A stretch of 64,000 nucleotides of DNA from an uncultured Prolixibacteraceae bacterium (GTDB lineage: Bacteria; Bacteroidota; Bacteroidia; Bacteroidales; FEN-979), in contig CAZTSX010000002.1 in the NCBI GenBank assembly GCA_964616825.1, forward strand, positions 149,054-213,053, given 5' to 3'. The notes under the pieces were generated by a model. The model did not search any database and had not been told where the DNA came from. It worked only from the letters and a program-made list of their open reading frames with translations. Shown here piece by piece: positions 16,608 through 62,922 of the stretch. Numbering within the stretch: the stretch's first letter is position 1; the number at the start of each line of letters is the position of its first letter. A program made the position numbers and the translations under genes.

Positions 16608-16688
16608 ACACGGATGACACGGATAAGACGAATTATCGCTGATTTGTAATCCGTGTAAATTCGCGATTTATCAGCGTAATCAGCGTGC
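16608..16688. repeat. Drifting tandem array with a period of about 9-10 bp, containing inverted words
   Basis: The sequence reads ACACGGATG ACACGGATA AGACGAATT ... TGTAATCCG TGTAAATTCG CGATTTATCAG CGTAATCAG CGTGC. CACGGAT pairs with ATCCGTG, and CGCTGAT pairs with ATCAGCG. Confidence 0.7.
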
Positions 16689-16746
16689 TATTTTTTGGTT
16701 GGATAAAAGATGAAAAAGCAATAAGTTTGTCAAAAAATTGATCCGG

Positions 16747-17985
16747 ATGAAACAGAAAACCAAGCTTTTCAAGGGAAAAACATTAGCAATACTATCCGGT
16801 GGTGGGGATACGCCGGCAGTCAACTCAAGCATCGAAGCGATTCGTAACAGGGCATCGTTATTGGGCTTCAACGTATATGGAATTCGGAAGGGATGGAAAG
16901 GGATGTTAGATGACGGGGATGTTATAGACTTATCCCATCAACCTTACGATGGCTGGTATGGCGGGACAGCCTTACGGTCGAGCCGTACGAACCCTTTTCC
17001 TTCGAAGAAAAATCCGGAAAGCAGGGTGCCCCAGGTGTTGCGGAATCTTGAACGATACAAGATTGATGTGCTTGTAACCATTGGAGGGGATGACACAAAC
17101 GGAGCTGCAAAAAGGTTATACGAAACGGAAGGCATTCCGGTAATTGGTTTTCCGAAGACCATCGACAACGATCTGCGCACCCGAACCATGCATCATTACA
17201 AGGGGAGGGAGATCGAAGCAGTGCTTTGTCCGGGTTTCCCTTCTGCTGCCAAGGCTGTCGCTGAATTTGCAGCTAAACTCAAAACAACTGCAGAGTCGCA
17301 CTCCCGTATCATCGTGATGGAGGTAATGGGCCGGGATGCAGGCTGGCTGACAGGTTCCGCTATCTTCGGAGGAGCTGGCCCGCTTGCGCTGATACCTGAA
17401 GTTGAAATAACCAAAGAGCGGAAAGAATCTTTCTTTGAATCTGTCAAAGAGAGTTACATGAGTTCACCGAAGAGGTGTCTCATCATCCCTGTTTCTGAAG
17501 GCGTCAGATGGTTTGACGACAAATCCGGGAAGGTAGATGTGGTTTATGCAAGCTCTGAGGTTGATGAATACGGCCATCCCCGGTTTGGCGGGATCAGCGG
17601 AGTCATCGCTTCCGAGATATCTAAACGGCTGGGGATCGAAGCACGGGCCCAGAGTACAGGCTACTATGCCCGGTCGGGACCGTGTCGCTTGTATGACAGA
17701 AGATTGACCCAAACCCTTGCCGATAAAGTGGCAGATCTGTTGATCCGTGAAGAGTTTGGTATGATGCCTGTGATGAAGACTCTCGTTCCTTTTGTGGAAC
17801 TTGAAGAATTCAACACATCGGCAATCGACATGGGGAAGGTAGGGAACAAACCACTCTCTGAAGATTATTTCGATGCCGGCGCCTTTTCATTTACCGGTGC
17901 ATACTGGAATTTTCTGGAGAGGGTGATGGAGAAACCTGAATTTGATGATTTTCTATACGAATTTCCAATAGTGGTTCCGGATTAA
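16747..17985 (+). CDS. pfp: 6-phosphofructokinase, probably pyrophosphate-dependent
   Basis: PFK-A family motifs are present. GGDDT (Asp where ATP-PFKs have GGDGS) and PKTIDND (Lys where ATP-PFKs have Gly) are the two classical PPi-specificity markers. Confidence 0.8.
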   Translation: MKQKTKLFKGKTLAILSGGGDTPAVNSSIEAIRNRASLLGFNVYGIRKGWKGMLDDGDVIDLSHQPYDGWYGGTALRSSRTNPFPSKKNPESRVPQVLRNLERYKIDVLVTIGGDDTNGAAKRLYETEGIPVIGFPKTIDNDLRTRTMHHYKGREIEAVLCPGFPSAAKAVAEFAAKLKTTAESHSRIIVMEVMGRDAGWLTGSAIFGGAGPLALIPEVEITKERKESFFESVKESYMSSPKRCLIIPVSEGVRWFDDKSGKVDVVYASSEVDEYGHPRFGGISGVIASEISKRLGIEARAQSTGYYARSGPCRLYDRRLTQTLADKVADLLIREEFGMMPVMKTLVPFVELEEFNTSAIDMGKVGNKPLSEDYFDAGAFSFTGAYWNFLERVMEKPEFDDFLYEFPIVVPD

Positions 17986-17987
17986 TA

Positions 17988-19283
17988 TCAACCTCTTTGG
18001 GGTGGGTCCTGAACCACGAATTGGATCGTGTTCCTTGATTTTTGCTCCAGAAGGATATTCCGGCCTGAAGTAATCCGCTGAACCGCCTCATCAGTATAAT
18101 GCCTGATGGTGTATAATTCAAGCCCATCGTTATATCGTACCTCAAACGTTTTCTGTAGCTCCCTGATCAATGGTGCGATCCTGACAGGATCATTATCAAC
18201 ACATATGGAGAAGCTGATTGCCGAATTTTGTGTAACATTTGCTTTTACATGCAGGCTGGCCAGGATCGTAAAAATATGACTCAGGTTCTCTTCCACGATA
18301 AATGAAAAGTCACGTGGCGAGATCGAGATCAAAACCTGATTCTCCTTCCGGATAAAAATGGGTGTGCTGATCTTCCACTCCTGCATATTTTTAACCAGTG
18401 TTCCCTCCTCCTCCGGATGGTGAAAACTCCTTACATCCAGCGTAATGTTAGCATTCTCAAGCGGCTTGATGGTTTTGGGGTGAAATATCTTGGCTCCGTA
18501 GTAAGCGAGTTCAATTGCTTCCAGAAACGAAAGTGTGTCCAGTTTTTCAGGATCATCGAACCATATCGGATCCGCATTCAGTACACCGGGAACATCTTTC
18601 CAAATAGTCACTTTTTTCACACGCATACAATATCCGATGACGGCAGCTGTAAAATCAGATCCCTCTCTCCCCAGGGTCGTAGGTTTCCCTTCCGGAGATC
18701 TGCCGATAAAACCTTGTGTCAGACCTATGCTCCCTCTCTTCTCCTGGAAAAAAGTAAAGAGCTGTTTTTGAATGGCCAACTGTGTCTTTTTCCAATCAAT
18801 ACTGGCATCGCGGAAGGAATTGTCGGTATGAAGGATGGAGGTGGCATCAAACACCCTGACCGCTAAACCTTCCAACGTGAGATAGTGATAGAGAATGGTT
18901 GTGGAGAAGATCTCTCCTAAGCTGACAACCCGATCATATGTCTCATCATAACCTGTTGCTCGATCCTGCCGGAGAATCCTTTGCAACGTTTCAAATTGGC
19001 TCTCTATTTCTGTAAAAACAGGATGTGTTTTATCCCCGAAAAGTTCGTTGACGATAGCCAGATGATACGCTTTCACCTGATTATACTCCTCAACCATCGA
19101 ATCAGCATCTTCCTCCATGTAATGATGAAGCATCCGTTCCATGGCGTTGGTTGTCTTTCCCAATGCGGAGAGGATCAGCATCATCGATTTTCCGGGAAAC
19201 CGATCAAGAACCCGTGCAACATTCCGAATCCCATCTGCCGAATTAACAGAGGCGCCTCCGAATTTAAAGACTTCTACGTTCAT
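17988..19283 (-). CDS. lysC: Aspartate kinase
   Basis: N-terminus VFKFGGASV, amino-acid kinase fold, and a C-terminal ACT-like region. Confidence 0.9.
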   Translation of the reverse strand: MNVEVFKFGGASVNSADGIRNVARVLDRFPGKSMMLILSALGKTTNAMERMLHHYMEEDADSMVEEYNQVKAYHLAIVNELFGDKTHPVFTEIESQFETLQRILRQDRATGYDETYDRVVSLGEIFSTTILYHYLTLEGLAVRVFDATSILHTDNSFRDASIDWKKTQLAIQKQLFTFFQEKRGSIGLTQGFIGRSPEGKPTTLGREGSDFTAAVIGYCMRVKKVTIWKDVPGVLNADPIWFDDPEKLDTLSFLEAIELAYYGAKIFHPKTIKPLENANITLDVRSFHHPEEEGTLVKNMQEWKISTPIFIRKENQVLISISPRDFSFIVEENLSHIFTILASLHVKANVTQNSAISFSICVDNDPVRIAPLIRELQKTFEVRYNDGLELYTIRHYTDEAVQRITSGRNILLEQKSRNTIQFVVQDPPQRG

Positions 19284-19339
19284 CGTGTTACAAACCTACG
19301 TGAAAAATATTATTTTCGCAACCCTCTCTTTTTGTACCT

Positions 19340-22678: not shown

Positions 22679-22716
22679 TCGTATTTTTTTTACTTTTGAA
22701 TAATTGAAACTACCCC

Positions 22717-24021: not shown

Positions 24022-24090
24022 AAAGTTATAATTAACGATAAAAGAAATTTATTCAGGGCAATAGAGCGATTGCCGATACGTTAAAAAGAG

Positions 24091-24831: not shown

Positions 24832-24832
24832 C

Positions 24833-26230
24833 ATGAGCGGTTATCTCATCCGTAATGCAAACATCGTCAACGAAGGAAAAATCTTTGTGGGGGATGTATT
24901 GGTCGAAGGAGATCGAATTCTGAAAATAGCATCCAGCATCGAGCATCAATGTCATTGCGAGGAGCAGAGCGACGAAGCAACAGCACCGAGCACCGAGCAC
25001 CGAGCATCGAGCATCGAGACCATCGACGCCACCGGCAAATACCTTCTCCCCGGCATCATCGACGACCAGGTACATTTTCGCGATCCCGGATTGACTCACA
25101 AAGGGGATCTTTTTTCCGAGAGCCGGGCTGCTGTCGCAGGAGGTGTGACATCATTTATGGATATGCCAAATACCGATCCAAAAACAACAACCCTGGCGTT
25201 ACTGGAGGAGAAGAATAAGATTGCGGCTTCAAAAGCGCTGGCGAACTACGCCTTCTTTTTTGGAGCAACCAATGAGAACCTGGATGAGATTCGACGAATC
25301 GATCCGCATAAGATATGTGGTGTGAAAATCTTTCTGGGGGCATCAACCGGCAACATGCTGGTAGACAATCCAACTACCATCAAAGCAATTCTTGATGAAT
25401 CACCGGTCCTGGTTGCCATCCACGCTGAAGATGAAGAGATCATACAGGCAAACAGCCGAATGTTCAGGGAAAAATATGGAGAAGATGTTCCCATGGAAGC
25501 ACACCCGTTGATCCGATCTGCTGAGGTTTGCTACCGGTCATCGGAACAAGCAGTGAAACTGGCTCGCGAAAGGGATTCCAGGCTCCATATCCTTCACCTC
25601 TCAACGACTCGGGAACTGGAACTTCTTGACCGTGGAATGCCGTTGAAAGAGAAACGCATCACCGGAGAGGTATGTGTCCATCATCTCTGGTTTAACGACT
25701 CCGATTACAAACGGCTGGGCGCACGGATCAAATGGAATCCGGCAATCAAATCAGCTGCCGATCAGCAAGCTTTACTAACTGGTATCCTGGATGACACCAT
25801 TGATATTATCGCTACCGACCATGCGCCACATCTCCTGGAGGAGAAAGCCAACCCCTATTTTTCCTGCCCGTCAGGCGGCCCGCTGATACAGCACACCCTG
25901 GTGGCCATGCTTGAATTTTATCATCAGGGGAAAATCCCCCTTGAACAAGTGGTTCAGAAGATGGCTCATAATGTAGCTGAACTGTATCGAATCGAACAAA
26001 GAGGCTACATCCGCGAAGGTTATTATGCCGACCTCGTACTGGTTGACCTGAACGCTCCCTGGATGGTGGCGAGTGAAAACATCCTCTACAAATGCGGTTG
26101 GTCACCCTTTGAAGGGACTACCTTTCAGTCGGCCGTTGACTCCACCTGGGTGAACGGCCACCTGGCCTATCGCCAGGGGAAAGTTTATGAATCCCATCGG
26201 GGGAAACGATTATCTTTTTATCATGACTAA
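24833..26230 (+). CDS. pyrC: Dihydroorotase (amidohydrolase) carrying a 25-aa in-frame insert
   Basis: IIDDQVHFRDPG, the ATDHAPH motif, and overall dihydroorotase-type sequence. Confidence 0.85.
   Translation: MSGYLIRNANIVNEGKIFVGDVLVEGDRILKIASSIEHQCHCEEQSDEATAPSTEHRASSIETIDATGKYLLPGIIDDQVHFRDPGLTHKGDLFSESRAAVAGGVTSFMDMPNTDPKTTTLALLEEKNKIAASKALANYAFFFGATNENLDEIRRIDPHKICGVKIFLGASTGNMLVDNPTTIKAILDESPVLVAIHAEDEEIIQANSRMFREKYGEDVPMEAHPLIRSAEVCYRSSEQAVKLARERDSRLHILHLSTTRELELLDRGMPLKEKRITGEVCVHHLWFNDSDYKRLGARIKWNPAIKSAADQQALLTGILDDTIDIIATDHAPHLLEEKANPYFSCPSGGPLIQHTLVAMLEFYHQGKIPLEQVVQKMAHNVAELYRIEQRGYIREGYYADLVLVDLNAPWMVASENILYKCGWSPFEGTTFQSAVDSTWVNGHLAYRQGKVYESHRGKRLSFYHD
24944..25018 (+). repeat. 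75-bp in-frame repeat-element insertion: a 30-bp core plus a heptamer array
   Basis: Flanked by the direct repeat AGCATCGAG (24935-24943 and 25010-25018). The core TCATTGCGAGGAGCAGAGCGACGAAGCAAC lies at 24952-24981, followed by GCACCGA x3 and GCATCGA x2. Confidence 0.8.
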
Positions 26231-26243: not shown

Positions 26244-26705
26244 ATGAAAGATTTCCCAATCAAAAGTATCTGTTCTCTGATCTCAATTACGCTATACTGC
26301 ATGCTGATCTCATGCTCTCAGAAGCAGACGGTGGTGGAAGAGACGTATAATGACGGCTCACCCAAACGGGAATGTGTTTACATAGGAGAGGGGAAGGATC
26401 GTGTGTTGGTGAAAGAGACCTTTTTCTACCCCAACCGACAGGTAGAGGTGAGGGGTGAATATAAGGATGGCGAGCGTCATGGATATTGGATCTATTACTT
26501 TGAGAATGGGAACGTTTGGAGCGAAGGGTTTTACAATATGGGCAAGAATGATGGGAAACGATTGACCTACTTTGAGAACGGGAAACTCAGGTACGAAGCC
26601 CATTATAAAGATGATAAACGGATTGGCGCCTGGAAATTCTACGATGAAGCCGGCAACCTGATCAAGGATGTGAACTATTCAAAAGAAACGCAGGAGAGGA
26701 ATTAA
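26244..26705 (+). CDS. MORN-repeat (YwqK-like) lipoprotein
   Basis: Lipobox MLISC. MORN-variant repeats are present (YKDGERHGYWIYYFENGN, GKNDGKRLTYFENGK, KDDKRIGAWKFYDEAGN). The start at 26244 avoids overlap with pyrC. Confidence 0.75.
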   Translation: MKDFPIKSICSLISITLYCMLISCSQKQTVVEETYNDGSPKRECVYIGEGKDRVLVKETFFYPNRQVEVRGEYKDGERHGYWIYYFENGNVWSEGFYNMGKNDGKRLTYFENGKLRYEAHYKDDKRIGAWKFYDEAGNLIKDVNYSKETQERN

Positions 26706-26799
26706 GAATAAATCCCAAAGTCGCCATAGTTGTTTTTATACAGCATTCAGGTCCCCCATAATGAGGATATTGGTTTTTGTGTCGATTGCAAATAGAGAG

Positions 26800-26955
26800 T
26801 CAATCACATGCCGTAACCGTGTGGCATTTTCCATCCGTTTCGGACGAGTCTTTTTCTCTCCGCCATATCGCGACTTCCAGTGGCTGTTTGAATTTCTGGC
26901 CATGAACAAAAGCAACGCTTATCACGAAAAGAAGAAGAGAAATAACTTTTTTCAT
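26800..26955 (-). CDS. Possible 51-aa secreted peptide (below the ORF-track cutoff)
   Basis: My own translation gives MKKVISLLLFVISVAFVHGQKFKQPLEVAIWRREKDSSETDGKCHTVTACD. It has a clear signal peptide and starts 20 nt downstream of the stop of the 26975-27841 gene on the same strand. Confidence 0.35.
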   Translation of the reverse strand: MKKVISLLLFVISVAFVHGQKFKQPLEVAIWRREKDSSETDGKCHTVTACD

Positions 26956-26974
26956 TCACGTAATCAGCGTGCAA

Positions 26975-27841
26975 TTAATCTGTGACGATCACCAGGTATT
27001 TTGTGACTGCCCAGAACGATTTCGGATCTGTGATCTGAAGTGCCTGTACCAGCTTTTTATCACCGGTAAACTTATATGACGACGAGGCATGCTTGGAGAG
27101 CACATCAGCTTTCTTACTCAGAATGGGAATCTCAGTGGTTTTACGGATGTCGATCAGGGTAAAATCATCCTTGTTGAAGTCATCCAGGATCACTTTACCT
27201 TTAAGGAAGTCGCCTTTGATTACTCTTTTTTTCTTGAGATCTTTGGCTGTACCAATGATATAGTAGGCAGTATTGAGCTTGGTTGTTTGCTCTTGAATCT
27301 GGTCGGACTGGTCGGTGATCTTGTCTGTCTGACTTTGGACAGTCTGTGAGAGGTCATCGATCATCAGGTTGGCTGCATCGATAGAGATATTCATTTTCAC
27401 CAGTTTTCCTCTAAGCTCTTCAATCTCAGCATTTTTCAGCGCGATCTCCGTATTGATACGGTCGACCAATTTTTGCAGCTCTGCTACCTGCAGGTTCGAG
27501 CCTTTCAATCTCTTCTGGAGATTCCTTAATGTTTGTTTGTTTTTTAACATCAGGGCATAGATGGTTTGGATATCACTTTTAATCTGCTTTTTAGCTGAAA
27601 CTTTCAGCTCGCCTCCCCGGTCAGTACTCAGGGCGATGATATTCTCTTTCATCTTGATTGTATCCAGGGTACTCTGGATATCGTTGATAGAAGCGATAAA
27701 TTCGCTGAGGGCTTCGTCTTTTTGAAGCGAGGTGGTCATGAGACTGTCGTTTCGTGACTTTAACGCTTCAGCCTCTTTTTTCGCCTGGCGTCCGCAGGCA
27801 AAGAAAACAGGAATCAACAGGAGAAGGAGATACTTTTTCAT
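26975..27841 (-). CDS. Coiled-coil lipoprotein of unknown function
   Basis: MKKYLLLLLIPVFFAC lipobox, followed by long heptad-rich helices. Confidence 0.7.
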   Translation of the reverse strand: MKKYLLLLLIPVFFACGRQAKKEAEALKSRNDSLMTTSLQKDEALSEFIASINDIQSTLDTIKMKENIIALSTDRGGELKVSAKKQIKSDIQTIYALMLKNKQTLRNLQKRLKGSNLQVAELQKLVDRINTEIALKNAEIEELRGKLVKMNISIDAANLMIDDLSQTVQSQTDKITDQSDQIQEQTTKLNTAYYIIGTAKDLKKKRVIKGDFLKGKVILDDFNKDDFTLIDIRKTTEIPILSKKADVLSKHASSSYKFTGDKKLVQALQITDPKSFWAVTKYLVIVTD

Positions 27842-27978: not shown

Positions 27979-28992
27979 ATGTGGAAATTCATGATTGCCA
28001 TGAAGTATGTGGTTCCCCTTTTTCGCTTGCTGATCCTTCTGCTTTTCTGTATCTCTGGGGCACAGTCCCTTAGCGCTGAGGAGATACCCAAAGGGCAGTT
28101 GCTCTTTATCGAAAACAAAGGTCAGATCATTGATCAGGTTGGGAATCTCAACCCGGCTGTGCGTTATTTATTCAACTCAATAGGGTTCAATGTGCAACTA
28201 CGAAAAGAGGGATTTAGTTATGATGTCTTTACGATAGAGAGACAAGGAGAAACCAATCACCAGTCACTAGTCACCAGTCCACAGTCCACAGTCCACTGTG
28301 CTCAATCAATGGATACGAATGACTCTCAGATACGTTTTCATCGAATTGACTTCAATTTTGAAGGGGCAAATCCTGATTGCAAAATCATCGCTGAAGATCC
28401 CTCTTCCAACTACCTGAATTACTATACCACCGGAACACCTGAAGAGGGCATTACCGAAGTTCGACATTATGGCAAAGTCACCTACAGGGATCTATATCCG
28501 GGAATTGACCTGGAATGCCTGTCAGGAGTTCAAACACGTTTCAAATATAATTTAATAGTCAAACCAGGCGCCGACATGGGTCAGATCCGGATGAGGATTG
28601 ATGGAGCTACAGAAATCAACGAGACAGATGGCAATCTGACCCTTCACAACTCAATCAACACCATTGAAGAGAAAATTCCTGCCAGTTTCTTCTCTGTAGA
28701 AAGCGAGACAACGGAAATTCAGGTAGAGTTTCACAACATTCATGACAACCTCTTTGGATTTTCAACTTCCACGGAAATACCTGCTGATGCCATTCTTATC
28801 ATAGATCCTGTCCCTGATATCGTGTGGGGGACCTATTATGGGGGTGCCAGCCTTGATTATATGTTTGATTGTGCTCTTGGTACCGACGGGAATCTGTACA
28901 CTGGAGGATACACATATTCACCCAATAATATTGCTTCTACAGGATCATTTCAGTTTACAATCGCAGGTATCATGAATCACTTGATAATCTGA
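27979..28992 (+). pseudogene. SBBP/beta-propeller-repeat secreted protein, 3'-truncated by a transposase remnant
   Basis: Signal peptide, an FIENKGQ N-terminal domain, and the first SBBP-like repeat (GNLYTGGYTYSPNNIASTGSFQ). The frame then runs into transposase-derived sequence and stops. No T9SS C-terminal domain is present. Confidence 0.6.
28258..28299 (+). repeat. 6 x 7-bp drifting array, in frame inside the SBBP gene
   Basis: CACCAGT CACTAGT CACCAGT CCACAGT CCACAGT CCACTGT. This is 42 bp (14 codons) and is translated as HQSLVTSPQSTVHC. Confidence 0.85.
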
Positions 28993-31895: not shown

Positions 31896-31914
31896 TTGTA
31901 GCGGGGGCTGGATT
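31896..31914. repeat. 19-bp duplicate of the tRNA-fMet 3' end (att-like)
   Basis: TTGTAGCGGGGGCTGGATT is identical to 33093-33111, which runs from the T-loop to the 3' end of the tRNA. The flanking bases differ. Confidence 0.85.
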
Positions 31915-31954
31915 ACTGGCGTGATCCATGATTGGAGGGCTTAGCAACAAAGCC
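31910..31954. repeat. 45-bp direct repeat R1 (partner at 32935-32979)
   Basis: GGATTACTGGCGTGATCCATGATTGGAGGGCTTAGCAACAAAGCC matches R2 at 43 of 45 positions. Weaker similarity continues for about 40 bp. Confidence 0.85.
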
Positions 31955-32249: not shown

Positions 32250-32264
32250 TGTAACTTTGTTACA
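32250..32264 (+). promoter_or_regulatory. Palindrome TGTAAC-TTT-GTTACA overlapping a TAACTTTG -7 box and the mntA start codon
   Basis: Perfect 6-bp arms. TAnnTTTG lies at 32252-32259, only 5 nt before the ATG at 32264. Confidence 0.4.
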
Positions 32265-32551
32265 TGCGTAAAAAGATCAATGAAATAAAAGAATCAATTA
32301 AACCAATTCTGTCCAAATATGGTATTCGTAATGCCTTTATTGTAGGTTCGGTTGCTAGAGGTGAAGATACTATTCAGAGTGATATTGATATTGTTGTTGA
32401 GATTAATCAACCTCTTAGTTTATTGACATTTGCCAGGATTAAAATTGAACTTGAAGAAATTTTAAATAAGAAAGTCGATCTCATAGAAAGGTCCGCAATC
32501 AAACCGAGGTTAAAAAAGTATTTATTGGAAAATGAAATATTAATAAACTGA
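32264..32551 (+). CDS. mntA: Nucleotidyltransferase (MNT) antitoxin
   Basis: GSVARGEDTIQSDIDIVV matches the minimal nucleotidyltransferase motif. The protein is 95 aa and lies 5 nt upstream of the HEPN gene. Confidence 0.85.
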   Translation: MRKKINEIKESIKPILSKYGIRNAFIVGSVARGEDTIQSDIDIVVEINQPLSLLTFARIKIELEEILNKKVDLIERSAIKPRLKKYLLENEILIN

Positions 32552-32556
32552 TTTTA

Positions 32557-32901
32557 ATGAAACGGGACTTTATTATTTACCTTGCGGACATCCTTGAATC
32601 GGCTGAATTGATTGAGGGATATACAAAAGACGTTTCTGAAGATGAATTTTATAAATCATCAGAAAAACAAGATGCTGTTCTTCGTCGTATCCAAATCATA
32701 GGAGAAGCTGCTAAGAAAATTCCAGAGGAATATAGAAAGATATGGTCTGATATACCGTGGAAAGAAATAGCAGGCATGCGGGATATTATTGTTCATGAAT
32801 ATTTTGGCATCACTATGATAATGGTTTGGAAAGTGGCAGTCGAAGATATTCCTTCTATAAAACTTCAAATAAGAAATATTCTGGATTCTCTTAATACCTG
32901 A
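32557..32901 (+). CDS. hepT: HEPN/DUF86 toxin
   Basis: Rx4HxY motif (RDIIVHEY), 114 aa, paired with the MNT gene. Confidence 0.85.
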   Translation: MKRDFIIYLADILESAELIEGYTKDVSEDEFYKSSEKQDAVLRRIQIIGEAAKKIPEEYRKIWSDIPWKEIAGMRDIIVHEYFGITMIMVWKVAVEDIPSIKLQIRNILDSLNT

Positions 32902-32934
32902 ATACCCACCCGCCCCGCTCACCCAAGCTAGGCA

Positions 32935-32979
32935 GGATTACTGGCGTGATCCATGATTGGAGGGCTTACCAACAAATCC
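32935..32979. repeat. 45-bp direct repeat R2
   Basis: Matches R1 at 43 of 45 positions. It is preceded by a degenerate att-like string, AGCTAGGCAGGATT. Confidence 0.85.
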
Positions 32980-36116: not shown

Positions 36117-36467
36117 ATGAAAAAGCTCTACATCTTATTGATTGCACTGATTGCATTCGGTTGTTCAAAAAAAGAAAATCCAGAAGTTCCAGAAAATCCA
36201 GAATTTATAATTTCAGGATGGACAAGATTAAATTCGGGGACAACCGAGAGGTTAAATTCCATTTACTTTACCGATGCAAATACAGGTTATGCCGCTGGCG
36301 GACTTACTGGAGGTTATCCAACAATTTTGTCGAGTAGAATATTACTTAAAACTTCAAATGGCGGGGAAAGCTGGAATCAACTTCTTTTAGATGGAAATAA
36401 CCAATTTTATTCAATTTTCTTTACAAGTACAGATACAGGTTATGCGATTGGCGGTTTTTCATCGTGA
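36117..36467 (+). CDS. Ycf48/BNR-like beta-propeller lipoprotein, apparently 3'-truncated (116 aa)
   Basis: Lipobox LIAFGC and two propeller-blade-like repeats (NSIYFTDANTGYAAGG and YSIFFTSTDTGYAIGG). It stops after the second blade, whereas family members normally have about 6-7 blades. Confidence 0.55.
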   Translation: MKKLYILLIALIAFGCSKKENPEVPENPEFIISGWTRLNSGTTERLNSIYFTDANTGYAAGGLTGGYPTILSSRILLKTSNGGESWNQLLLDGNNQFYSIFFTSTDTGYAIGGFSS

Positions 36468-36639: not shown

Positions 36640-37971
36640 ATGGCAATAATCGCAATCGTCGGTCGCCCAAACGTGGGAAAATCCACCCTTTTTAACCGTC
36701 TCGTCGGCAGGAGGGATGCTATCGTAGATCCTTCCAGCGGGGTTACCCGCGATCGTCACTACGGCAAATCTGACTGGAACGGAGTGGAGTTTTCGGTGAT
36801 AGATACCGGAGGCTACGTGGATGACTCGGGTGATGTATTCGAGGAGGAGATCAAGAAACAGGTGCGGCTGGCTATTGAGGAAGCCGACTGCATCCTTTTT
36901 ATGGTAGATGCCCGGGAAGGCCTTTCCGGCATGGATGAAGATGTTGCAGCTGTACTGAGACGATCCGAAAAACCTGTGTTCCTGGTCGTGAATAAAGTGG
37001 ATACCCATAAACAGCTCCATGAAGTGTCGGAATTCTACAAACTGGGCCTGGGCGACCTCTACAGCATCTCCGCGATCACAGGCAGCGGCACCGGCGAACT
37101 GCTGGATGCCATGGTAGCAGCCATTTCCCCGGAAGTACGGACGGGGCATGCCCCGTCCCCACAGCATGCCTCGTCCCTACAGGAAATGCCCCGTATCGCC
37201 ATCGTCGGCCGGCCCAATGCAGGCAAATCGTCGCTGGTGAATCTGCTGCTGGGAGATGACCGGACGATCGTCACACCCGTACCGGGAACCACACGCGATT
37301 CGATCCATTCACATTATAAAAACTTCGGGCTCGATTTTTTATTGATCGATACCGCCGGAATCCGCAAGAAGGCAAAAGTAAAGGAGGATGTTGAGTTTTA
37401 TTCAGTGATGAGGGCTGTGCGTTCGATCGAACACAGCGATGTCTGTATCCTGATGGTGGATGCTGAACGGGGCTTTGAGGTCCAGGACATCAACATATTC
37501 TCCCTGATTACCCAAAACCATAAAGGAGTAGTGATCCTGGTCAATAAATGGGATTTGATCGAAAAGAAGACCAATACACACAAGGAATTTGAAGAATATA
37601 TCCGCGAACGCATTGCCCCTTTCAGGGATGTTCCCATCATATTTACCTCCGTAACCCAGAAACAAAGGGTCTTCAAGGCAGTGGAGACAGCCATAGAGGT
37701 TTACAGACGCAGAACTGAAAAAATCCCGACACGAAAACTGAATGACGTCATGTTGCCGATCATTCAGCAAAAACCGCCACCAAAGGTCAAAGATAAGATT
37801 GTCAAAATCAAATACATCACCCAGTTGCCTAAGTCCTATCCGATATTTATCTTTTTTTGTAACCATCCTCAATACGTAAAAGAGTCTTATCAACGTTTTC
37901 TAGAAAACCGCCTCCGGGAATACTTCAATCTTACAGGAGTTTCCCTGGAGATCTTCTTCAGACAAAAGTGA
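36640..37971 (+). CDS. der: GTPase Der (EngA) with an expanded inter-domain linker
   Basis: Two GTPase domains ([12 protein letters not shown] and [12 protein letters not shown]) and a C-terminal KH-like domain. Confidence 0.95.
37139..37182 (+). repeat. Perfect 20-bp palindrome overlapping two 18-bp tandem units, inside the der linker
   Basis: GGACGGGGCATGCCCCGTCC lies at 37139-37158. CATGCCCCGTCCCCACAG (37147-37164) and CATGCCTCGTCCCTACAG (37165-37182) match at 16 of 18 positions. Confidence 0.85.
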
Positions 37972-42861: not shown

Positions 42862-42909
42862 TTATCCAGTTATCCAGTTATCAAGTTATCCAGATATCCA
42901 GTTATCCAG
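42862..42909. repeat. 6 x 8-bp tandem array (TTATCCAG) in the dtd/pdxJ divergent promoter
   Basis: TTATCCAG TTATCCAG TTATCAAG TTATCCAG ATATCCAG TTATCCAG. Confidence 0.9.
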
Positions 42910-42921
42910 CAACAAATTTAG

Positions 42922-42929
42922 TAGTTTTG
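42922..42929 (+). promoter_or_regulatory. Candidate -7 box TAGTTTTG for pdxJ
   Basis: TAnnTTTG match, 17 nt upstream of the ATG at 42946. Confidence 0.35.
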
Positions 42930-43666: not shown

Positions 43667-43701
43667 CTTCTCGCTATTCGCCATACGCATTTCGCTTATT
43701 A
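43667..43701. repeat. 5 x 7-bp drifting array between pdxJ and the dipeptidase gene
   Basis: CTTCTCG CTATTCG CCATACG CATTTCG CTTATTA (consensus CNNTNCG). Confidence 0.7.
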
Positions 43702-46569: not shown

Positions 46570-46578
46570 TAAAGAAGG

Positions 46579-46616
46579 ATTGCCATATTATTGCCATTAA
46601 TTGCCATAGATTGTAC
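46579..46616. repeat. ATTGCCAT x3 (+1 degenerate copy) phased at 10-11 bp, upstream of the adenosine deaminase gene
   Basis: Copies start at 46579, 46590 and 46600, with a degenerate ATTGTAC at 46610. Confidence 0.8.
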
Positions 46617-46630: not shown

Positions 46631-47569
46631 ATGAATGTATTTTATTCCGGTTTAACGGAGGGGAATATCCCCTTAGTTCGTTCAGTTCCCAAGGCCGACT
46701 TGCATAATCACTGTTTACTGGGTGTCAGATTGGAGAGGATGCGGACAATCTCCGGGCTGGATATTCAACCCTTTCACTACAAAGGAAACGGGATCAAGGA
46801 TATCAATCACTGGATCAGGGATCAATATGTTCCTGTGATGCACATTCCGGGAATTTTTCAGAAGCTTATTGAAGCAAGCTTTCAGCAAGCTCTCGATGAT
46901 GGGGTCACCCTGTTGGAGATGAGTATGGATGTTGCCTTCGGGCTCCTTTATAAACTTACTCCCCGGCAAATTGCAGATATCCTGAAGGAAACTCATATGC
47001 AGACAGCTCCCTCAATCACTTTCCGTCCTTGTCTGGGTTTTGTCCGCAGCGCACCTGTGAGGCAGCTTTTGAGGCTCTTTGAGCCTTACCTGGATTTGAA
47101 CTATTTCACCGCGATTGATCTGTATGACGATGAATTGAGTCAGCCGGTTCAAAACTTTCGGGAGATCTACCGTTTTGCCCGCCAGCAGGGATTCCGATGT
47201 ACTGCTCATGTCGGAGAATTTGGCTCTGCCGAAGATGTCAGGGAAGCCGTAGAAATACTCAATCTGGATGCAGTACAACATGGGATTGCTGCCGCTGCAT
47301 CACCGGAAGTCATGCATTGGCTGGCTGACCGGGAGGTTCCTCTGAATATCTGCCCTACCAGCAATCTGGTTTTACAGCGGGTGCAATCGTATGCTTCCCA
47401 TCCCATTCGGACCCTGTTTGATCACGGCGTAAAGGTAACAGTCAACACCGATGATGTAACCCTATTTAACCAGGGAGTCTCAGAAGAGTATCTGAACCTC
47501 TACCGTGCCGGTCTTTTCTCAGCCGAAGAGTTGGATGGGATCAGGGAATATTCATTGCAAGGAGCTTAG
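46631..47569 (+). CDS. Adenosine/adenine deaminase family protein
   Basis: KADLHNHC, HVGE and VNTDD metal/catalytic motifs. Confidence 0.85.
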   Translation: MNVFYSGLTEGNIPLVRSVPKADLHNHCLLGVRLERMRTISGLDIQPFHYKGNGIKDINHWIRDQYVPVMHIPGIFQKLIEASFQQALDDGVTLLEMSMDVAFGLLYKLTPRQIADILKETHMQTAPSITFRPCLGFVRSAPVRQLLRLFEPYLDLNYFTAIDLYDDELSQPVQNFREIYRFARQQGFRCTAHVGEFGSAEDVREAVEILNLDAVQHGIAAAASPEVMHWLADREVPLNICPTSNLVLQRVQSYASHPIRTLFDHGVKVTVNTDDVTLFNQGVSEEYLNLYRAGLFSAEELDGIREYSLQGA

Positions 47570-47581
47570 CGACGAAGCAAC
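47552..47581. repeat. Second copy of the 30-bp core element
   Basis: TCATTGCAAGGAGCTTAGCGACGAAGCAAC matches 24952-24981 at 27 of 30 positions. Confidence 0.85.
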
Positions 47582-53756: not shown

Positions 53757-55888
53757 TGAAAGATGCCCTGAAAATCAAAAGAGGTTTAGCATTTAAACTG
53801 ATTCTGTCAGTTTTTTCTGCCATCGCCGTAATCTTCATCGTCATTTTTCTATATAACTATTCAGTCACTCGAAACACGTTGATCAAAGACCTGGATGCCA
53901 TTGCTTCTAACCTCACTGAAAGTATCGTTAACAAAGTTGACCGGACCCTTTTTGCTATGGCGAAAATTCCGGATAACCTCGCTGCGGTGATTGAACATTC
54001 TGATCTCACCGAGGAAGAACTGAAGCAGCTGTTGAAGCTGGCTGTGGAAGTCAACCCCGAAATCTATGGTTCAGCCATCGCTTTTGAACCACACTTCGAA
54101 GGGAGGAAAGATAAATTTTATTCATGGTATGCTTACCGTGAGAACGATAGTGTGGTGATGACAACCCTGGGAAGCGACCTGTATGATTATTACCTGATGG
54201 ACTGGTACCAGATCCCACGTGAAAAGAGAGAACCATACTGGACGGAACCCTATTTTGATGAAGGAGGGGCCAACATCATTATGTCGACCTATTCAGTCCC
54301 GCTTTATTTCACCAGGGGAGGGAAGAGAGAATTTGTCGGGATCGTGACTGCAGATATCTCACTTACCTGGTTACGGGAGTTGGTAGACTCGATCCGTGTG
54401 TTTGAAACCGGGTTTGGATTTCTGATTTCGCAGAACGGAACCTTTGTTACCCATCCGGTCGAAGAACTGATCATGAATGCTTCCATCTTCAGGCTGGCAG
54501 AGGAGTTTAATATGCCTATGTTCCGGGAACTGGGGAGAAAGATGATCCACCGTGAAAGCGGATTCAGCACAACGACCTATGAGAACTTTTACAACCATAA
54601 GAACAGCTGGGTTGCTTATGATCCTGTACCTAGCAATGGCTGGTCTCTGGCAGTTGTTTTCCCGGTTGATGAGTTAATGGCAGACGCACGTTATCTCAAC
54701 ATGATGATTATCCTTTTAGGCAGTGCTGGCCTGGTGGTTATCTTCCTGGTTATCCTGCTGATCTCCCGTTCGATCACTCGCCCGTTGCGCAAGCTCGCCC
54801 AGGCTGCTGAAAGCTTTGCTGAGGGAGATTTTGATGTCACCCTGCCAGAGGTAACATCCGGGGATGAGATTGGCCGGCTGACGATCAGCTTCAGGTATAT
54901 GCAAAAGACCCTGGCAGAGACAATCGGAAACCTGAAAGAAATCTCCGAACAACTTCGAATATCCAACGAGAAGCTGGAAGATTACAGCAAAACCCTGGAG
55001 TTGAGGGTGGAGGAACGCACAGCTGAGCTTGTCGCCAAGAACACCGAACTGGATAAAGCTCTCCAAACCCTGAAGGCTGCTCAGGCGCAACTGGTACAAT
55101 CTGAAAAGTTGGCTTCACTGGGTAAGGTGACAGCCGGGATTGCGCATGAGATCAAAAATCCACTAAATTTTGTGAACAACTTTGCTGAGCTTTCAACCGA
55201 CCTGGCTAGCGAACTTAAAGAGGAACTGGAAAAGGTTAAAGACCGTCTGGATGATAAGGATGTGGAGTACCTGATTGAGATCGCCGGGGATCTGGAAGGG
55301 AATGCCCGGAAGATCCATGATCATGGGAAACGGGCCGATAGTATCATCCGTGGAATGCTGCTTCACTCCCGCGGGAAATCGGGAGAGCGGCTACCTGCTG
55401 ATATCAATGCCTTGCTCGAAGAGTATGTCAACCTGGGATATCATGGCATGCGGGCTACCGATCCTTCTTTCAATATTAAAATCGAATCCTCGTACGATCC
55501 TGCTGTCGGAGTGGTTGATGTGATCCCTCAGAACCTGAGCCGGGTCTTTCTCAACATCATCAACAATGCCTGTCAGGCCACAGCACAGAAGAAAAAAGAG
55601 ATGAAGGAATCCTATTTCCCAGTGCTAACGATATCAACAAAACGGTTGAAAAAATGGATCGAGATCCGGATCAGGGATAATGGAAAAGGGATTCCAAAAG
55701 ATGTCCGGGAGAAGGTATTCAACCCTTTCTTTACGACGAAGCCTGCCGGATCAGGTACCGGCCTGGGGCTTTCGATCAGTTACGACATCGTTGTTCAGGA
55801 GCACAAGGGTGAGATCAACGTTGAATCCAGGGAAGGAGAGTATACCGAATTTATCATCCGAATCCCTGCAGGATCTTCTGCAGCTTAA
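53756..55888 (+). CDS. Sensor histidine kinase with an extracytoplasmic Cache-like domain, HAMP and a coiled coil
   Basis: TM - ~280-aa periplasmic domain (DWYQIP...WTEPYFD, dCache-like) - TM - HAMP. H-box GIAHEIKNPLNFV, with HATPase N and G boxes (NACQA, DNGKGI, GSGTGLGLSI). Confidence 0.9.
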   Translation: MKDALKIKRGLAFKLILSVFSAIAVIFIVIFLYNYSVTRNTLIKDLDAIASNLTESIVNKVDRTLFAMAKIPDNLAAVIEHSDLTEEELKQLLKLAVEVNPEIYGSAIAFEPHFEGRKDKFYSWYAYRENDSVVMTTLGSDLYDYYLMDWYQIPREKREPYWTEPYFDEGGANIIMSTYSVPLYFTRGGKREFVGIVTADISLTWLRELVDSIRVFETGFGFLISQNGTFVTHPVEELIMNASIFRLAEEFNMPMFRELGRKMIHRESGFSTTTYENFYNHKNSWVAYDPVPSNGWSLAVVFPVDELMADARYLNMMIILLGSAGLVVIFLVILLISRSITRPLRKLAQAAESFAEGDFDVTLPEVTSGDEIGRLTISFRYMQKTLAETIGNLKEISEQLRISNEKLEDYSKTLELRVEERTAELVAKNTELDKALQTLKAAQAQLVQSEKLASLGKVTAGIAHEIKNPLNFVNNFAELSTDLASELKEELEKVKDRLDDKDVEYLIEIAGDLEGNARKIHDHGKRADSIIRGMLLHSRGKSGERLPADINALLEEYVNLGYHGMRATDPSFNIKIESSYDPAVGVVDVIPQNLSRVFLNIINNACQATAQKKKEMKESYFPVLTISTKRLKKWIEIRIRDNGKGIPKDVREKVFNPFFTTKPAGSGTGLGLSISYDIVVQEHKGEINVESREGEYTEFIIRIPAGSSAA

Positions 55889-55904
55889 CTAAAATGAAGT
55901 GATT

Positions 55905-57095: not shown

Positions 57096-57105
57096 AGAAA
57101 GTGGA

Positions 57106-58056: not shown

Positions 58057-58068
58057 AATGTTGCGTGT

Positions 58069-58506: not shown

Positions 58507-58615
58507 TTGCGGGAGATTTTGTTGTTAATTTTGATGGCTCGAAAGTAGATAAAGATATTTTCGGCGACAATAATTATCCGTTCAGTCTCGTGATTTCTCC
58601 GTTTAGCTCACGGAA

Positions 58616-59440: not shown

Positions 59441-59514
59441 TTCTTTAATTCAAAATGTAAAAATATAAAATTCCACTAATAAATCTCTACTTTTACAGGT
59501 GCAAACCCACCTGC

Positions 59515-59991
59515 ATGCAAACACTCATCGTCTATATGTCTTCACACGGTTGTGCCGGGAAGGCTGCTTTGATGATCCGGGATCTGCTGCCTGATGAGGT
59601 GACTGTGATCAACCTTGAATCGGATGAATTGCCTTCGCTGGATTCGTTCCACACACTCATTATTGGGGGTTCCATCCGTATCGGCACCCTCCAGAAACGT
59701 CTCAAAAAATTCTGTGAAAAAAACCTGGACCAGTTGTTAAAAAAGAGGATCGGATTGTACATCTGCTGCATGTATGAAGGCAACAAAGCCCGGGAACAAC
59801 TTATGGAAAATTATCCTGAACCGCTTGTCAATCATGCAGTTGGAATAGGAATTTTTGGCGGGGAACTCGACTTCGACAAGATGAATGTCTTTGAACGAAT
59901 GATCATCAAGGATGTCATCGGGATCACGGTTAACGTCTCGCTCTTCAACGAAGCAGCGGTAAGGGCGTTTGTGAAGAAGATAATTGGATGA
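59515..59991 (+). CDS. Flavodoxin-domain protein (HemG-like)
   Basis: LIVYMSSHGCAGKAA and IIGGSIRIG, a short flavodoxin fold. Confidence 0.75.
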   Translation: MQTLIVYMSSHGCAGKAALMIRDLLPDEVTVINLESDELPSLDSFHTLIIGGSIRIGTLQKRLKKFCEKNLDQLLKKRIGLYICCMYEGNKAREQLMENYPEPLVNHAVGIGIFGGELDFDKMNVFERMIIKDVIGITVNVSLFNEAAVRAFVKKIIG

Positions 59992-60053
59992 CTGGATGCT
60001 CGGTGCTCGATGCTCGATGCTTGATCCCGGATCCATGAACCTTGAATCTTGAA
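59991..60053. repeat. Drifting array of about 9 x 7-bp units between convergent genes
   Basis: ACTGGAT GCTCGGT GCTCGAT GCTCGAT GCTTGAT CCCGGAT CCATGAA CCTTGAA TCTTGAA. Confidence 0.85.
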
Positions 60054-60060
60054 CGTTATT

Positions 60061-60654: not shown

Positions 60655-60843
60655 GATTATTGATTTACTATTATATGAAATGCAAATATACATCCAGATT
60701 CTCTTATGGGTTAACTGAATCTCCAAACGGACAGATTCTCTCTGCCAACGATATAAACTTTTCTTTGAACAGATATGCAACCTATTCAATATCGTTGTAT
60801 CTTTGTGAAGAAAGAAACAGATTCAATCACGAAAACAAAACCG

Positions 60844-62862
60844 ATGAAAAAAATTTACATGTTACTCATTTTTGCCTCATTGTCATGTATGACATTTGGC
60901 CAGACCTTCGTTTGGGAGGCTTTTGATGCAGGTCAGATGCCTCCGACAGACTGGACGATTGATGGTTTGGAATCGCAATGGTCAATCAGTAACACGGCAA
61001 ATGCCGGAGGAGCTGCCCCGGAAGCGATGTTTTCATGGACCTCCGCAACGAGTGTTACGAGGTTTATCTCACCCTCGCTTGACCTGACAGGACTCACCTC
61101 TGTTCAACTCTCCTTCAAGCATATGTATGACTGGTACTCCAATCCTGCTCCACTAGTAGGTGTGGCCACACGGTCTGCTGGCGGTCCCTGGACCTCAGTA
61201 TGGGAGATCGCTCCGACCGGTAACGTAGGGCCAGAACAGGTCGACATGACCATTTCTAATAGTGATGTAGGAGCTGCTGACTTCCAGTTTTGCTTTTACC
61301 TGGATGGAAATTTTTACAACCTTGACTACTATTACCTGGATAATATTCTTCTGTTCAATCCACTGAACCTGGATGGAGCCATGACCGCCCTCACCACTCC
61401 TACCTACATTGAGGGACCCACAGGGGTTACAGGCACCGTTATGAACATGGGGATCACTACTATCACGAGCCTGGATATTGACTGGCAGCTGGATGGTGGT
61501 ACTGTTCATTCTACATCATTCACAGGATTATCTCTGGCCACTCAGGATACATATGACTTTCTGTGCGCTGACCTGGTTAATGCCCCGGTGGGTGAGCACA
61601 CCCTAACTGCCTGGATAGATAAAGTAAATGGTGCAACCGATGACGATCAGAGCAACGATACACTAAGCAAACCATTAATTAAACCCAGTCATGTGGTTCC
61701 AAGGAAACCCTGCTTTGAAGAGTTTACGAGCTCAACATGCCCTCCCTGCGCTACATTTAACCTTGGTGGATTTGTAGCCTGGTGCGAGACAATGGCAGAC
61801 GATATAACCCTGGTGAAATACCAGATGGACTGGCCTGGTGCCGGTGATCCCTATTACACAGCAGAAGGCGGAGAAAGAAGAATGTATTATGGTGTTGGTT
61901 GGGTGCCATGGCTGGTTACTAATGGCGCGTTTGTGGAAACCAATATGGGGGCTGTTCAGGCTGCCTATGATCAGGCGATCCTGCAACCCGGATTGGCGGG
62001 TATTGCTGCAGCTCATGAGCTGGATAACCATGTGATCACCGTGAATGCAACCGTTCTCCCTTTTGCTGATTTTACAAATACCGTACTCCATATCGTTGTT
62101 TTTGAGTATATGACAACTGGAAATGTTGGCACAAACGGGGAAACAGAATTCCACCATGTGATGATGAAGATGATGCCTGACGCAAGCGGGACTACGCAGG
62201 ACATGTTTGACCGGAATCCTTTTGCAGTATCTGAAACGGTAGACCTGACTGGAACAAATGTTGAAGAGTGGGATGACCTTGGCGTATTGGTCCTGGTTCA
62301 GGATTATGTGACCCGGGAAGTGTTACAATCATTTTATTCAGTAGAAAATGGAACCTTTGCCGATGAAGCTCGTCTCGATAATATCCTGGTTGATGGAATT
62401 TCACTTCCGGGATTTGATCCGGATGTGTTTGATTATGATGTTGAAGTGCCGGGAGGTGTGTTAATTCCAGAGATTGAAGGAATTCCCATGGATCCGAACG
62501 CTATCGTGATTGTGGAACCTGCGTTGGAAATTCCGGGAACAACGATCATTGATGTCTTTGCGGAGGACTTGTCTACGCAAAATACCTATTCAGTGAACTT
62601 TATCTTTTCAGTTGGACAGGATGAAAACAAAGCAAATGCTGTTCGGGTGTATCCAAATCCATCAGCCGGCAACATTTATATCCACGGCGCAGACCATGCG
62701 AATGTTTCTGTTTATTCATCTACCGGCTTGAGAGTGAAGAGCATTGAGAACTTTTCAAATACAGTATTAAACCTGATGGATCTTTCAGATGGGGTATACA
62801 TGTTACGTATTCAGAAAGAGAATGGAACGATGATCCAGAAAAAGATCGTCATCGTCAAATAG
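60844..62862 (+). CDS. T9SS-sorted multidomain protein (MAM-like + CxxC thioredoxin-like/Omp28-like + cadherin-like + sorting domain)
   Basis: Signal peptide MKKIYMLLIFASLSCMTFGQ, then EEFTSSTCPPCATFN and LDNILVDGISLPGFDPDVFDYDVEV. The sorting domain reads VRVYPNPSAGNIYIHG...GVYMLRIQ. Confidence 0.85.
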   Translation: MKKIYMLLIFASLSCMTFGQTFVWEAFDAGQMPPTDWTIDGLESQWSISNTANAGGAAPEAMFSWTSATSVTRFISPSLDLTGLTSVQLSFKHMYDWYSNPAPLVGVATRSAGGPWTSVWEIAPTGNVGPEQVDMTISNSDVGAADFQFCFYLDGNFYNLDYYYLDNILLFNPLNLDGAMTALTTPTYIEGPTGVTGTVMNMGITTITSLDIDWQLDGGTVHSTSFTGLSLATQDTYDFLCADLVNAPVGEHTLTAWIDKVNGATDDDQSNDTLSKPLIKPSHVVPRKPCFEEFTSSTCPPCATFNLGGFVAWCETMADDITLVKYQMDWPGAGDPYYTAEGGERRMYYGVGWVPWLVTNGAFVETNMGAVQAAYDQAILQPGLAGIAAAHELDNHVITVNATVLPFADFTNTVLHIVVFEYMTTGNVGTNGETEFHHVMMKMMPDASGTTQDMFDRNPFAVSETVDLTGTNVEEWDDLGVLVLVQDYVTREVLQSFYSVENGTFADEARLDNILVDGISLPGFDPDVFDYDVEVPGGVLIPEIEGIPMDPNAIVIVEPALEIPGTTIIDVFAEDLSTQNTYSVNFIFSVGQDENKANAVRVYPNPSAGNIYIHGADHANVSVYSSTGLRVKSIENFSNTVLNLMDLSDGVYMLRIQKENGTMIQKKIVIVK

Positions 62863-62867
62863 ATCTC

Positions 62868-62922
62868 TGTAAGGGTGACCGGAACGGTCGCCCTTACAAA
62901 AATTTGTCCGGTCGCCCTTACA
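62868..62922. repeat. Palindromic element with one left arm and two copies of the right arm
   Basis: TGTAAGGGTGACC (62868-62880) pairs with GGTCGCCCTTACA at 62886-62898, with one G-T position. GGTCGCCCTTACA recurs at 62910-62922. Confidence 0.8.

Follow-up and report, generated by a model that had tools for sequence, protein, structure and literature searches.

What are the short, imperfect tandem repeats that recur along this stretch of a Prolixibacteraceae genome, and are they anything new? The window, by which we mean the whole stretch of 64,000 nt that was analysed (contig CAZTSX010000002.1, positions 149,054 to 213,053), belongs to an uncultivated marine Bacteroidia population and its neighbourhood holds Por_Secre_tail genes of the type IX secretion system (T9SS); among GTDB genomes the nearest are metagenome-assembled Bacteroidales. 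A sequence-only reading of this DNA had described at least nine loci, eight of them listed, as one window-wide family of ‘drifting’ arrays in which each unit differs slightly from its neighbour, and had found no known class of feature to explain them. We find that the genuine arrays are real, fixed in the population, turned over between species and situated at permissive sites, and that the heptamer bias they display is general in Bacteroidota. They are likely to be long simple-sequence repeats (SSRs) with 7–8-nt units, made by slippage and filtered by selection, and long SSRs with heptamer units are a class of feature that has already been described (PMC4692102; PMC4679880; PMC2670836).

Tandem repeats were called using Tandem Repeats Finder (TRF) over the whole window, and the calls were compared with those from 200 dinucleotide-preserving shuffles of the window and, because shuffled sequence makes a weak null model for real DNA, with those from 79 loci (1.22 Mb) of other Bacteroidota taken around pdxJ. 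The same-population sample comprised 16 contigs from different JGI, ENA and Logan samples, with 99.88–99.98% identity to the window, in which seven arrays (the array at 59990 not among them) were each compared across 5–10 independent assemblies; these are consensus assemblies, so that minority length variants would escape. Comparisons between species used a sister species at ~93–94% nucleotide identity (L097/L098 and L223–L237) and the more distant relatives L017, L018, L099 and L450. An Rfam scan of the whole window returned one tRNA only, and no family at any repeat locus.

Genuine arrays and their density

Six of the eight listed tracts were confirmed by TRF as tandem arrays, and the remaining two, at 43667–43701 and 16608–16688, are not arrays (Table 1). 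Uninterrupted head-to-tail copies that suit the definition of a long SSR (units of 5–11 nt, at least about 3–4 copies) are present at 24982–25018, 28252–28297, 42862–42909 and 59995–60025.

Table 1. Positions and TRF calls of the repeat tracts in the window.
Position	Strand	Tract	TRF call	Units and context
16608..16688	+	Not an array		ACACGGAT x2 and TCAGCGT x2 (9-nt-spaced), inverted copy ATCCGTGT, then a T-run
24928..24951	+	pyrC array, 5' part	24928-24947, period 7, 2.9 copies	AGCATCC AGCATCG AGCATC...
24952..24981	+	Dispersed repeat, not an array		TCATTGCGAGGAGCAGAGCGACGAAGCAAC; 30-nt in-frame insert, absent from L097 pyrC
24982..25018	+	pyrC array, 3' part	24982-25018, period 7, 5.3 copies, score 60	GCACCGA x3, GCATCGA x2; encodes APSTEHRASSIE
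28252..28299	+	DUF7948 heptamer array, in frame	28252-28297, period 7/14, about 6 copies, score 54	CACCAGT/CACTAGT, then CCACAGT/CCACTGT; 6-7 units; encodes HQSLVTSPQSTVHC
37139..37182	+	der inter-domain linker	37146-37182, period 18, 2.1 copies, score 60	Perfect 20-nt palindrome GGACGGGGCATGCCCCGTCC (37139-37158) overlapping an 18-nt in-frame tandem duplication
42862..42909	.	Octamer array, dtd-pdxJ divergent spacer	42862-42909, period 8, 6 copies, score 82	TTATCCAG x6; strand unassigned
43667..43701	+	Not an array	No match	Ordinary pdxJ-M19 spacer
46579..46616	+	ATTGCCAT array	46578-46613, period 10, score 46	Three cores and a fourth, degenerate one, 10-11 nt apart; immediately upstream of adenosine deaminase
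59990..60025	-	Flavodoxin 3' heptamer array, pyrC words	59995-60025, period 7, 4.4 copies, score 48	ATCAAGC ATCGAGC ATCGAGC ACCGAGC ATCCAGT; between convergent flavodoxin and isochorismatase-family genes
60026..60054	+	CCTTGAA-type heptamer tract	60036-60054, period 7, score 31	About 3 units; common to sister species

After merging, the window held 25 arrays with a TRF score of at least 30, 9 of at least 40, 4 of at least 50 and 1 of at least 80, against shuffle means of 8.8, 1.1, 0.16 and 0 respectively, so that the array density does exceed the dinucleotide-shuffled expectation, by 3–25 times depending on the score threshold. These counts bear on whether a pattern-seeking reader had merely picked out chance similarities. 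Chance does account for 43667–43701 and largely for 16608–16688, weak period 7–8 matches with scores of 30–40 also turn up in the shuffles (8.8 per window), and other genomes match the window in overall density. Scores of 54–82 are nevertheless rare or absent in the 200 shuffles, and orthologous copy number changes between species; chance is thus refuted for the six TRF-confirmed arrays, and as a general account it is very improbable.

In the control Bacteroidota the density per 64 kb was 28.9 (score of at least 30), 8.9 (at least 40) and 3.8 (at least 50), essentially equal to that of the window, and an unusual array density is therefore ruled out by these 1.22 Mb. Period 7 was the commonest among control arrays with at least four copies (18/39), followed by period 8 (5). 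Since period 7 dominates in the control Bacteroidota too, the 7-nt register is real but general and not a property of this window; the four period 7–8 arrays with at least four copies found in the window, versus ~1.2 expected, are a borderline excess only. The slippage-prone process with a register of about 7 nt that had been suggested for these tracts fits the data, and the literature accounts for heptamer repeats in the same way.

Across the same-population assemblies the seven arrays showed zero differences. Because they are identical across independent assemblies (16 JGI, ENA and Logan contigs) they are not assembly artefacts, and, as far as consensus assemblies can tell, the population shows no hypervariability in them. 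This weighs on the idea that they are phase-variation (contingency) loci, in which changes in unit number would switch genes or alter promoter spacing. Because the length of the unit is not divisible by three, the gain or loss of any single unit would shift the frame, and one array lies in a promoter or 5' untranslated region (5' UTR) and another in a probable surface protein. Against this, degenerate units suppress slippage, no length variation was seen among 5–10 assemblies from different samples, and one array lies in dihydroorotase, a housekeeping enzyme whose switch-off would be harmful and whose frame is preserved in every lineage examined. Contingency switching is hence most improbable, in keeping with the earlier statement that these are not homogeneous microsatellites of the phase-variation type, given units that are degenerate and seven arrays that are invariant. 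The statement that they are not CRISPR arrays is equally sound: the units are 7–8 nt long and directly abutting, as opposed to ~25–40-nt repeats with unique spacers.

Turnover between species and a shared word family

Comparison with orthologous loci, the check proposed in the sequence-only reading, showed that four loci differ in presence/absence or copy number between close relatives, namely the pyrC, TTATCCAG and flavodoxin loci and that of an array in L097; the tract at 43667 does not. Such turnover between species is typical of microsatellites.

At the dtd-pdxJ spacer, the window has six TTATCCAG units, the sister-species contig L227 has two within window-like flanks, and no unit occurs in seven further contigs of the sister species, nor in L017, L018 and L450; L017 and L018 instead carry G/C-rich hairpin modules at the same spacer position and L036 carries CATTTTG x3. 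The array lies upstream of a TAnnTTTG box for pdxJ (42922–42929, plus strand) and between the corresponding dtd box (TAAATTTG, minus strand, 42913–42920) and the dtd start codon, and both boxes are conserved in all relatives. TAnnTTTG is the Bacteroidetes −7 promoter consensus, by which the two boxes are taken as putative promoters. From their positions, the array is probably located in the dtd 5' UTR. In L227 the dtd segment (2004–2510) is ~92% identical to the sister species and to the window alike, and most of its other genes are 99–100% identical to the other sister-species contigs, which indicates that the segment, and with it the two-unit TTATCCAG allele, was recombined from a third lineage.

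The pyrC array consists of 2.7 units, a 30-nt insert and a further 5.3 units in the window, and of 10.3 contiguous units in L097, so that by alignment the two parts of the window array are contiguous in the sister species. The L097 dihydroorotase is 91% identical in protein sequence and 461 aa long, versus 465 aa in the window, with the frame kept. That the arrays inside coding sequences keep the reading frame had been claimed for three genes, and all three are indeed open (dihydroorotase, 465 aa; the DUF7948 protein, 337 aa; and Der). The APSTEHRASSIE peptide is placed between two conserved blocks of the N-terminal domain of dihydroorotase, in a hypervariable loop at which aligned homologues have from ~13 to 72 residues and the solved Porphyromonas dihydroorotase 2GWN lacks 12 residues. 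At the same site L221 (69–70% identity) carries GCACAGG x4.3, CAGCAAC x11.4 and CCAGGAT x4.6, and L222 (69–70% identity) carries an ATCCCCG-type array of 10.9 units; the frame is intact in every lineage examined. A 7-residue peptide period is restricted to dihydroorotases of the clade with at least 69% identity, which fits one old pyrC array that may have persisted and drifted. In L099 the loop holds a hairpin module in place of a heptamer array. An AlphaFold model of dihydroorotase, built from a 19-sequence alignment, was too poor to be used (mean pLDDT, the model's per-residue confidence, 54.9).

The G/C-rich hairpin modules that relatives have at the array sites of the window are found in L017 (about 5725–5775), in the dtd-pdxJ spacer of L018 and in L099 (about 10110–10175); they include CCCCCTAAAGGGGGCTTAGGGGTA and GTAGGGGCAACCGG/CCGGTTGCCCCTAC, and the one in frame in the L099 pyrC loop encodes SPTPNPSPTREGSKSPLGDLG.

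The insert that interrupts the window pyrC array is one of two copies, with 90% identity, of a 30-nt dispersed repeat (TCATTGCRAGGAGCnnAGCGACGAAGCAAC; 24952–24981 and 47552–47581). The copy in pyrC encodes HCEEQSDEAT. The second sits where the adenosine deaminase and ABC-transporter genes overlap at their ends, a site at which the insert of the sister species is longer and different. This repeat may be an element of the miniature inverted-repeat transposable or repetitive extragenic palindromic (MITE/REP) type. The suggestion that the arrays themselves are footprints of a small non-autonomous element does not suit them, although this unrelated repeat does interrupt the pyrC array. As candidates for MITE/REP-type elements the arrays were rejected, being without a stable fold (z = −0.06) and without dispersed full-length copies. 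A diversity-generating retroelement was likewise rejected, since the positions at which the pyrC array departs from the flavodoxin array are C/T and G/C and not adenines; no reverse-transcriptase domain was present in the neighbouring gene lists.

The second in-frame heptamer array lies in a DUF7948 gene whose product is a probable surface protein, in a hypervariable stretch between conserved GFSYD and HRID motifs. A search for a sister-species orthologue of this gene found none: its best homologues reach ~40% identity, and at 90% its cluster has members from this population only. Two of these homologues have heptamers of their own in the same loop, CAGCAGT x3.6 and AGCATCG x2.9 in L451 and CAGTCAG x4.7 in L452 (both ~40% identity). 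The heptamers in the coding arrays are all stop-free, and need to be, since three units in a row take the word through every reading frame. The words CACCAGT and CCACAGT resemble words of the cyanobacterial STRR repeats. Membership of STRR was rejected: the units here are GCAYCSA, CACCAGT/CCACAGT and TTATCCAG, and the organism is one of the Bacteroidia with T9SS genes and not a heterocystous cyanobacterium.

The array downstream of the flavodoxin gene is a (GCTCGAT)n block that is absent in the sister species, and the adjoining CCTTGAA units are common to both, so that the array only seems to ‘drift’ into its flank. A hairpin or terminator role was ruled out for it by its fold (z = −0.06). All seven sister-species contigs with the flavodoxin gene (L231–L237) end 28–217 nt downstream of it, which suggests an assembly-breaking repeat or polymorphism there.

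The flavodoxin and pyrC arrays have the words GCATCCA, GCATCGA and GCACCGA in common, and, as had been noticed from the letters, on opposite strands: no inverted repeat in the window is longer than the one that the pyrC array forms with 59992–60021 (30 nt, 90%). Three or four arrays belong to this word family, AYCSAGY. The notion of a single window-wide family was too broad, in that only the pyrC, flavodoxin-3' and TTATCCAG arrays, together with one sister-species array, have words in common. The latter (L097 3136–3211) is a ATCCAGTC/ATCCAGC array of about nine units between Exo_endo_phos and 288-aa genes, is absent at the orthologous site of the window, and is related to the array at 42862 through ATCCAG octamers. 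The pattern (A[TC]C[CG]AG[CT][CT]?)n, which was derived after seeing the arrays and is hence partly circular, matched three window arrays and two in the 6-kb sister-species contig; it had no match in the 1.22-Mb controls and none in L099, whose dihydroorotase is 81% identical, counts that share this partial circularity. The chance of a second independent heptamer array falling in the same four-word family is ~0.3% per array. Because this comes to roughly 1–2% over the arrays present, we conclude that the lineage re-uses one word family, as do Xanthomonas, Nostoc and Beggiatoa.

At the site of the sister-species ATCCAGTC array the window has one of two copies of the 14-mer CGTAATCAGCGTGC, which occurs in two gene-end spacers (16675–16688 and 26959–26972, the second being this site). 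The Exo_endo_phos_3 gene of the window (about 26700–26975) is a 55-aa remnant, compared with 336 aa in L097 and L099.

Re-use of words could mean that AYCSAGY arrays are seeded from locus to locus, by template switching, templated repair insertion or a tiny mobile element, and so form a dispersing family. The three words shared on opposite strands in the best inverted repeat of the window, the recent gain of the flavodoxin array relative to the sister species, the related ATCCAG octamers at 42862 and L097 3136, the absence of such an array from all 79 control loci (0/79) and the presence of a genuinely dispersed 30-nt repeat in the same genome all speak for this. Yet the pyrC and flavodoxin arrays have their units in different orders, so that one cannot simply have been copied from the other; neither termini nor target-site duplications nor linked mobility genes were observed; and the zero count in the controls is partly circular, the search pattern having been taken from the same arrays. 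In addition, (GCAYCSA)n arrays are common in unrelated organisms, those with (GCAYCSA)x3 in metagenomes spanning 38–71% GC among the matches listed, and in viral contigs the GCAYCSA family, with 59 stretches, is no commoner than four composition-matched stop-free control heptamer families (3, 19, 46 and 85), which rules out a universally special word. We therefore regard seeding as quite unlikely.

Among the metagenome matches L101–L180 many heptamer arrays are compound, with different arrays side by side (L170, L169, L102, L167, L174, L125). A reverse-complement array (at least 18/21 matches) lies within 250 nt in 5/70 loci, again among the matches listed, and such pairs could form long hairpins; some differences between their arms look like transitions.

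Tracts of other kinds

Outside the heptamer class stand two separate and unrelated repeats, the one with ATTGCCAT and the duplication in der. The ATTGCCAT array is identical in the sister species, takes the form of ATTGCCATAG x4 in L017 and ATTGCACAGT x5 in L018, and is absent in L450, the unit thus changing in concert across species with an ATTGC core kept. Examined as an iteron or operator, for 46579–46616 only, it shows the 10–11-nt spacing and the core kept in the sister species, L017 and L018, the concerted change in the rest of the unit and the absence from L450. From its sequence it is a possible candidate binding site, the one locus at which the proposed arrays of binding sites are plausible.

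Extended to the arrays in general, that proposal holds that they are functional tandem sites for a repeat-reading protein, either a DNA transcription factor or an OB-fold/cold-shock-type protein acting on spacer RNA, which would tune neighbouring genes. It draws on the ATTGCCAT cores at 10–11-nt spacing directly upstream of the adenosine deaminase start, on the ATTGC-core array that the sister species, L017 and L018 have at this position, on spacer arrays lying in probably transcribed regions, and on the proposal of S1, Csp or Csr binding for TAACTGA heptamer arrays, each CspB protein binding a single heptamer (PMC4679880). The 3' half of the ATTGC unit, however, shifts in concert between species (CCATAG versus ACAGT), as homogenization produces, and the array is absent from L450, a nearer relative than L017 or L018. 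The sister species lacks both the TTATCCAG array and the flavodoxin array despite the same flanking genes, words vary by locus, two arrays lie within coding sequence, and no candidate binding protein was identified. Away from the ATTGCCAT locus the proposal is not plausible, and as an explanation of the arrays it is unlikely.

In L017, the closest GTDB relative, ACGAAGG x5 followed by a 14-nt unit x2 (8735–8809) stands directly after the adenosine deaminase stop codon, where the window has overlapping gene ends.

The der linker is variable, with GGGGCATGCCCC-type remnants in the sister species and L450. The tract at 43667–43701, which had been read as a period-7 array, is conserved position for position without length change in eight sister-species contigs. 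Rather than a drifting 9-unit array, 16608–16688 comprises two small duplications and an inverted repeat; it folds only marginally better than its shuffles (z = −1.67) and is possibly a 3'-end hairpin region. Just after a 695-aa open reading frame, at 62869–62922, there is a hairpin (GTAAGGGTGACC...GGTCGCCCTTAC) and then a second direct copy of GGTCGCCCTTACA. This is probably the ninth, unlisted locus of the sequence-only reading, and it resembles a terminator hairpin accompanied by a partial duplication.

TRF arrays outside the original list are at 36173–36203 (AGAAAATCC x3.4, score 48), 32269–32302 (17-nt unit x2, score 47) and 54021–54050 (13-nt unit x2.4, score 39). Direct repeats of 49 nt (94%; 31906–31954 and 32931–32979) surround an MNT/HepT toxin-antitoxin pair (about 32264–32901). 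In the sister species this pair is inverted and lies between era and der (L223 2611–3248), which suggests a mobile cassette.

Heptamer repeats elsewhere and the origin of the arrays

Heptamers are the most abundant long SSRs in most prokaryotic genomes, and the 7-nt bias is ascribed to the footprint of the polymerase under a slippage hypothesis (Mrazek, 2007, as quoted in PMC4692102 and PMC4679880). In the same quoted account, long SSRs have 5–11-nt units and resemble the arrays described here in their head-to-tail 7–8-nt units in about 3–11 copies, their mostly intergenic position, the predominance of period 7, their variability between relatives and the slippage proposed for them; as far as that account goes in-frame coding arrays are uncommon, whereas two are present here with a unit that is not a multiple of three (Mrazek et al., 2007). 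Genus-specific heptamer words vary in length and sequence between close species (PMC4692102; PMC4679880; PMC2670836), and heptamer arrays are known in Bacteroidetes whose relatives are without them (PMC4679880). In this literature no mechanism is evident for the specificity or the spread of heptamer words.

As in Xanthomonas (GGGAATC) and Nostoc (GGGGA(T/C)T) (PMC4692102) and in the cyanobacterial STRR (PMC2670836), one word family occupies several loci here on either strand. Like those genus-specific families, the arrays lie near gene starts and ends, and arrays in the same spacer differ in length between species; unlike them, AYCSAGY is not G-rich, so that no G-quadruplex is possible, and 3–4 loci were seen in 64 kb. 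The TAACTGA repeats of Beggiatoaceae, cyanobacteria and five Bacteroidetes (PMC4679880) also occur in Bacteroidetes spacers and have close relatives without arrays. They often lie just upstream of start codons and share spacers with other heptamer arrays. TAACTGA contains stop codons and is excluded from genes, whilst the words found here are stop-free on both strands and lie in frame (PMC4679880).

Repeat DNA that encodes an extra peptide in permissive loops of conserved proteins has a parallel in another group of bacteria. Rickettsia palindromic elements are selfish repeats inserted in frame in genes, and they share this feature with the arrays; a likeness is also seen in the relatives, where the L099 pyrC loop and the L017/L018 dtd-pdxJ spacer hold G/C-rich hairpin modules. 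The window arrays differ from the Rickettsia elements in being tandem direct repeats, without palindromic structure and without dispersed full-length copies.

Of the explanations weighed above, slippage filtered by selection remains the likely one, and in outline it could work as follows. A proto-repeat of two units would be expanded, contracted and homogenized by slipped-strand mispairing during replication or repair, and point mutations piling up between slippage events would give the ‘drifting’ units. Arrays that arise next to native proto-repeats would appear to blend into their flanks. An array would survive only where extra sequence is harmless, selection removing harmful ones; the permissive sites here would be transcribed spacers (probably the dtd 5' UTR, and the convergent 3' junction) and protein surface loops (the N-terminal domain of dihydroorotase, and DUF7948). 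Within genes an array would survive only if its heptamers are stop-free and its net length is divisible by three, and it would then yield a peptide with a 7-residue period. We infer slippage as the mechanism and near-neutrality as the state of the arrays, as we do the dtd 5' UTR location of the TTATCCAG array.

Several points weigh against this reading. Slippage itself was not observed, and length polymorphism within the population was zero, as judged from consensus assemblies only. Words are shared by unlinked loci (30 nt at 90%, with ATCCAG octamers at two more), which independent slippage alone does not explain. The ATTGCCAT-type array is kept at one position in four lineages, which could reflect selection rather than neutrality. 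Exposure of the pyrC loop, finally, is suggested by alignment alone.

The shared words lend themselves to a further reading, which we consider doubtful, in which heptamer microsatellites would be long-lived, self-renewing residents of their sites in this Bacteroidia clade, in the dihydroorotase loop (at least 69% identity) and the DUF7948 loop (down to 40%). Templated copying, and not independent slippage, would then have re-seeded their word family at the 3' end of flavodoxin and in the dtd 5' UTR, which would make the arrays an element that propagates without a transposase.

The finding opens no new kind of system, and its mildly novel points are only two, arrays that persist in frame within protein loops and one word family whose repeated use is unexplained. 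It provides a documented heptamer case from uncultivated marine Bacteroidia, in which sister-species comparisons display gain, loss and expansion. For annotation, a 7-residue period allows a low-complexity loop insert to be recognized as a translated heptamer array, and tracts of this kind are not to be confused with assembly errors, CRISPR arrays or mobile elements. It also shows that heptamer arrays can occupy permissive loops of conserved proteins in frame and persist there across a clade.

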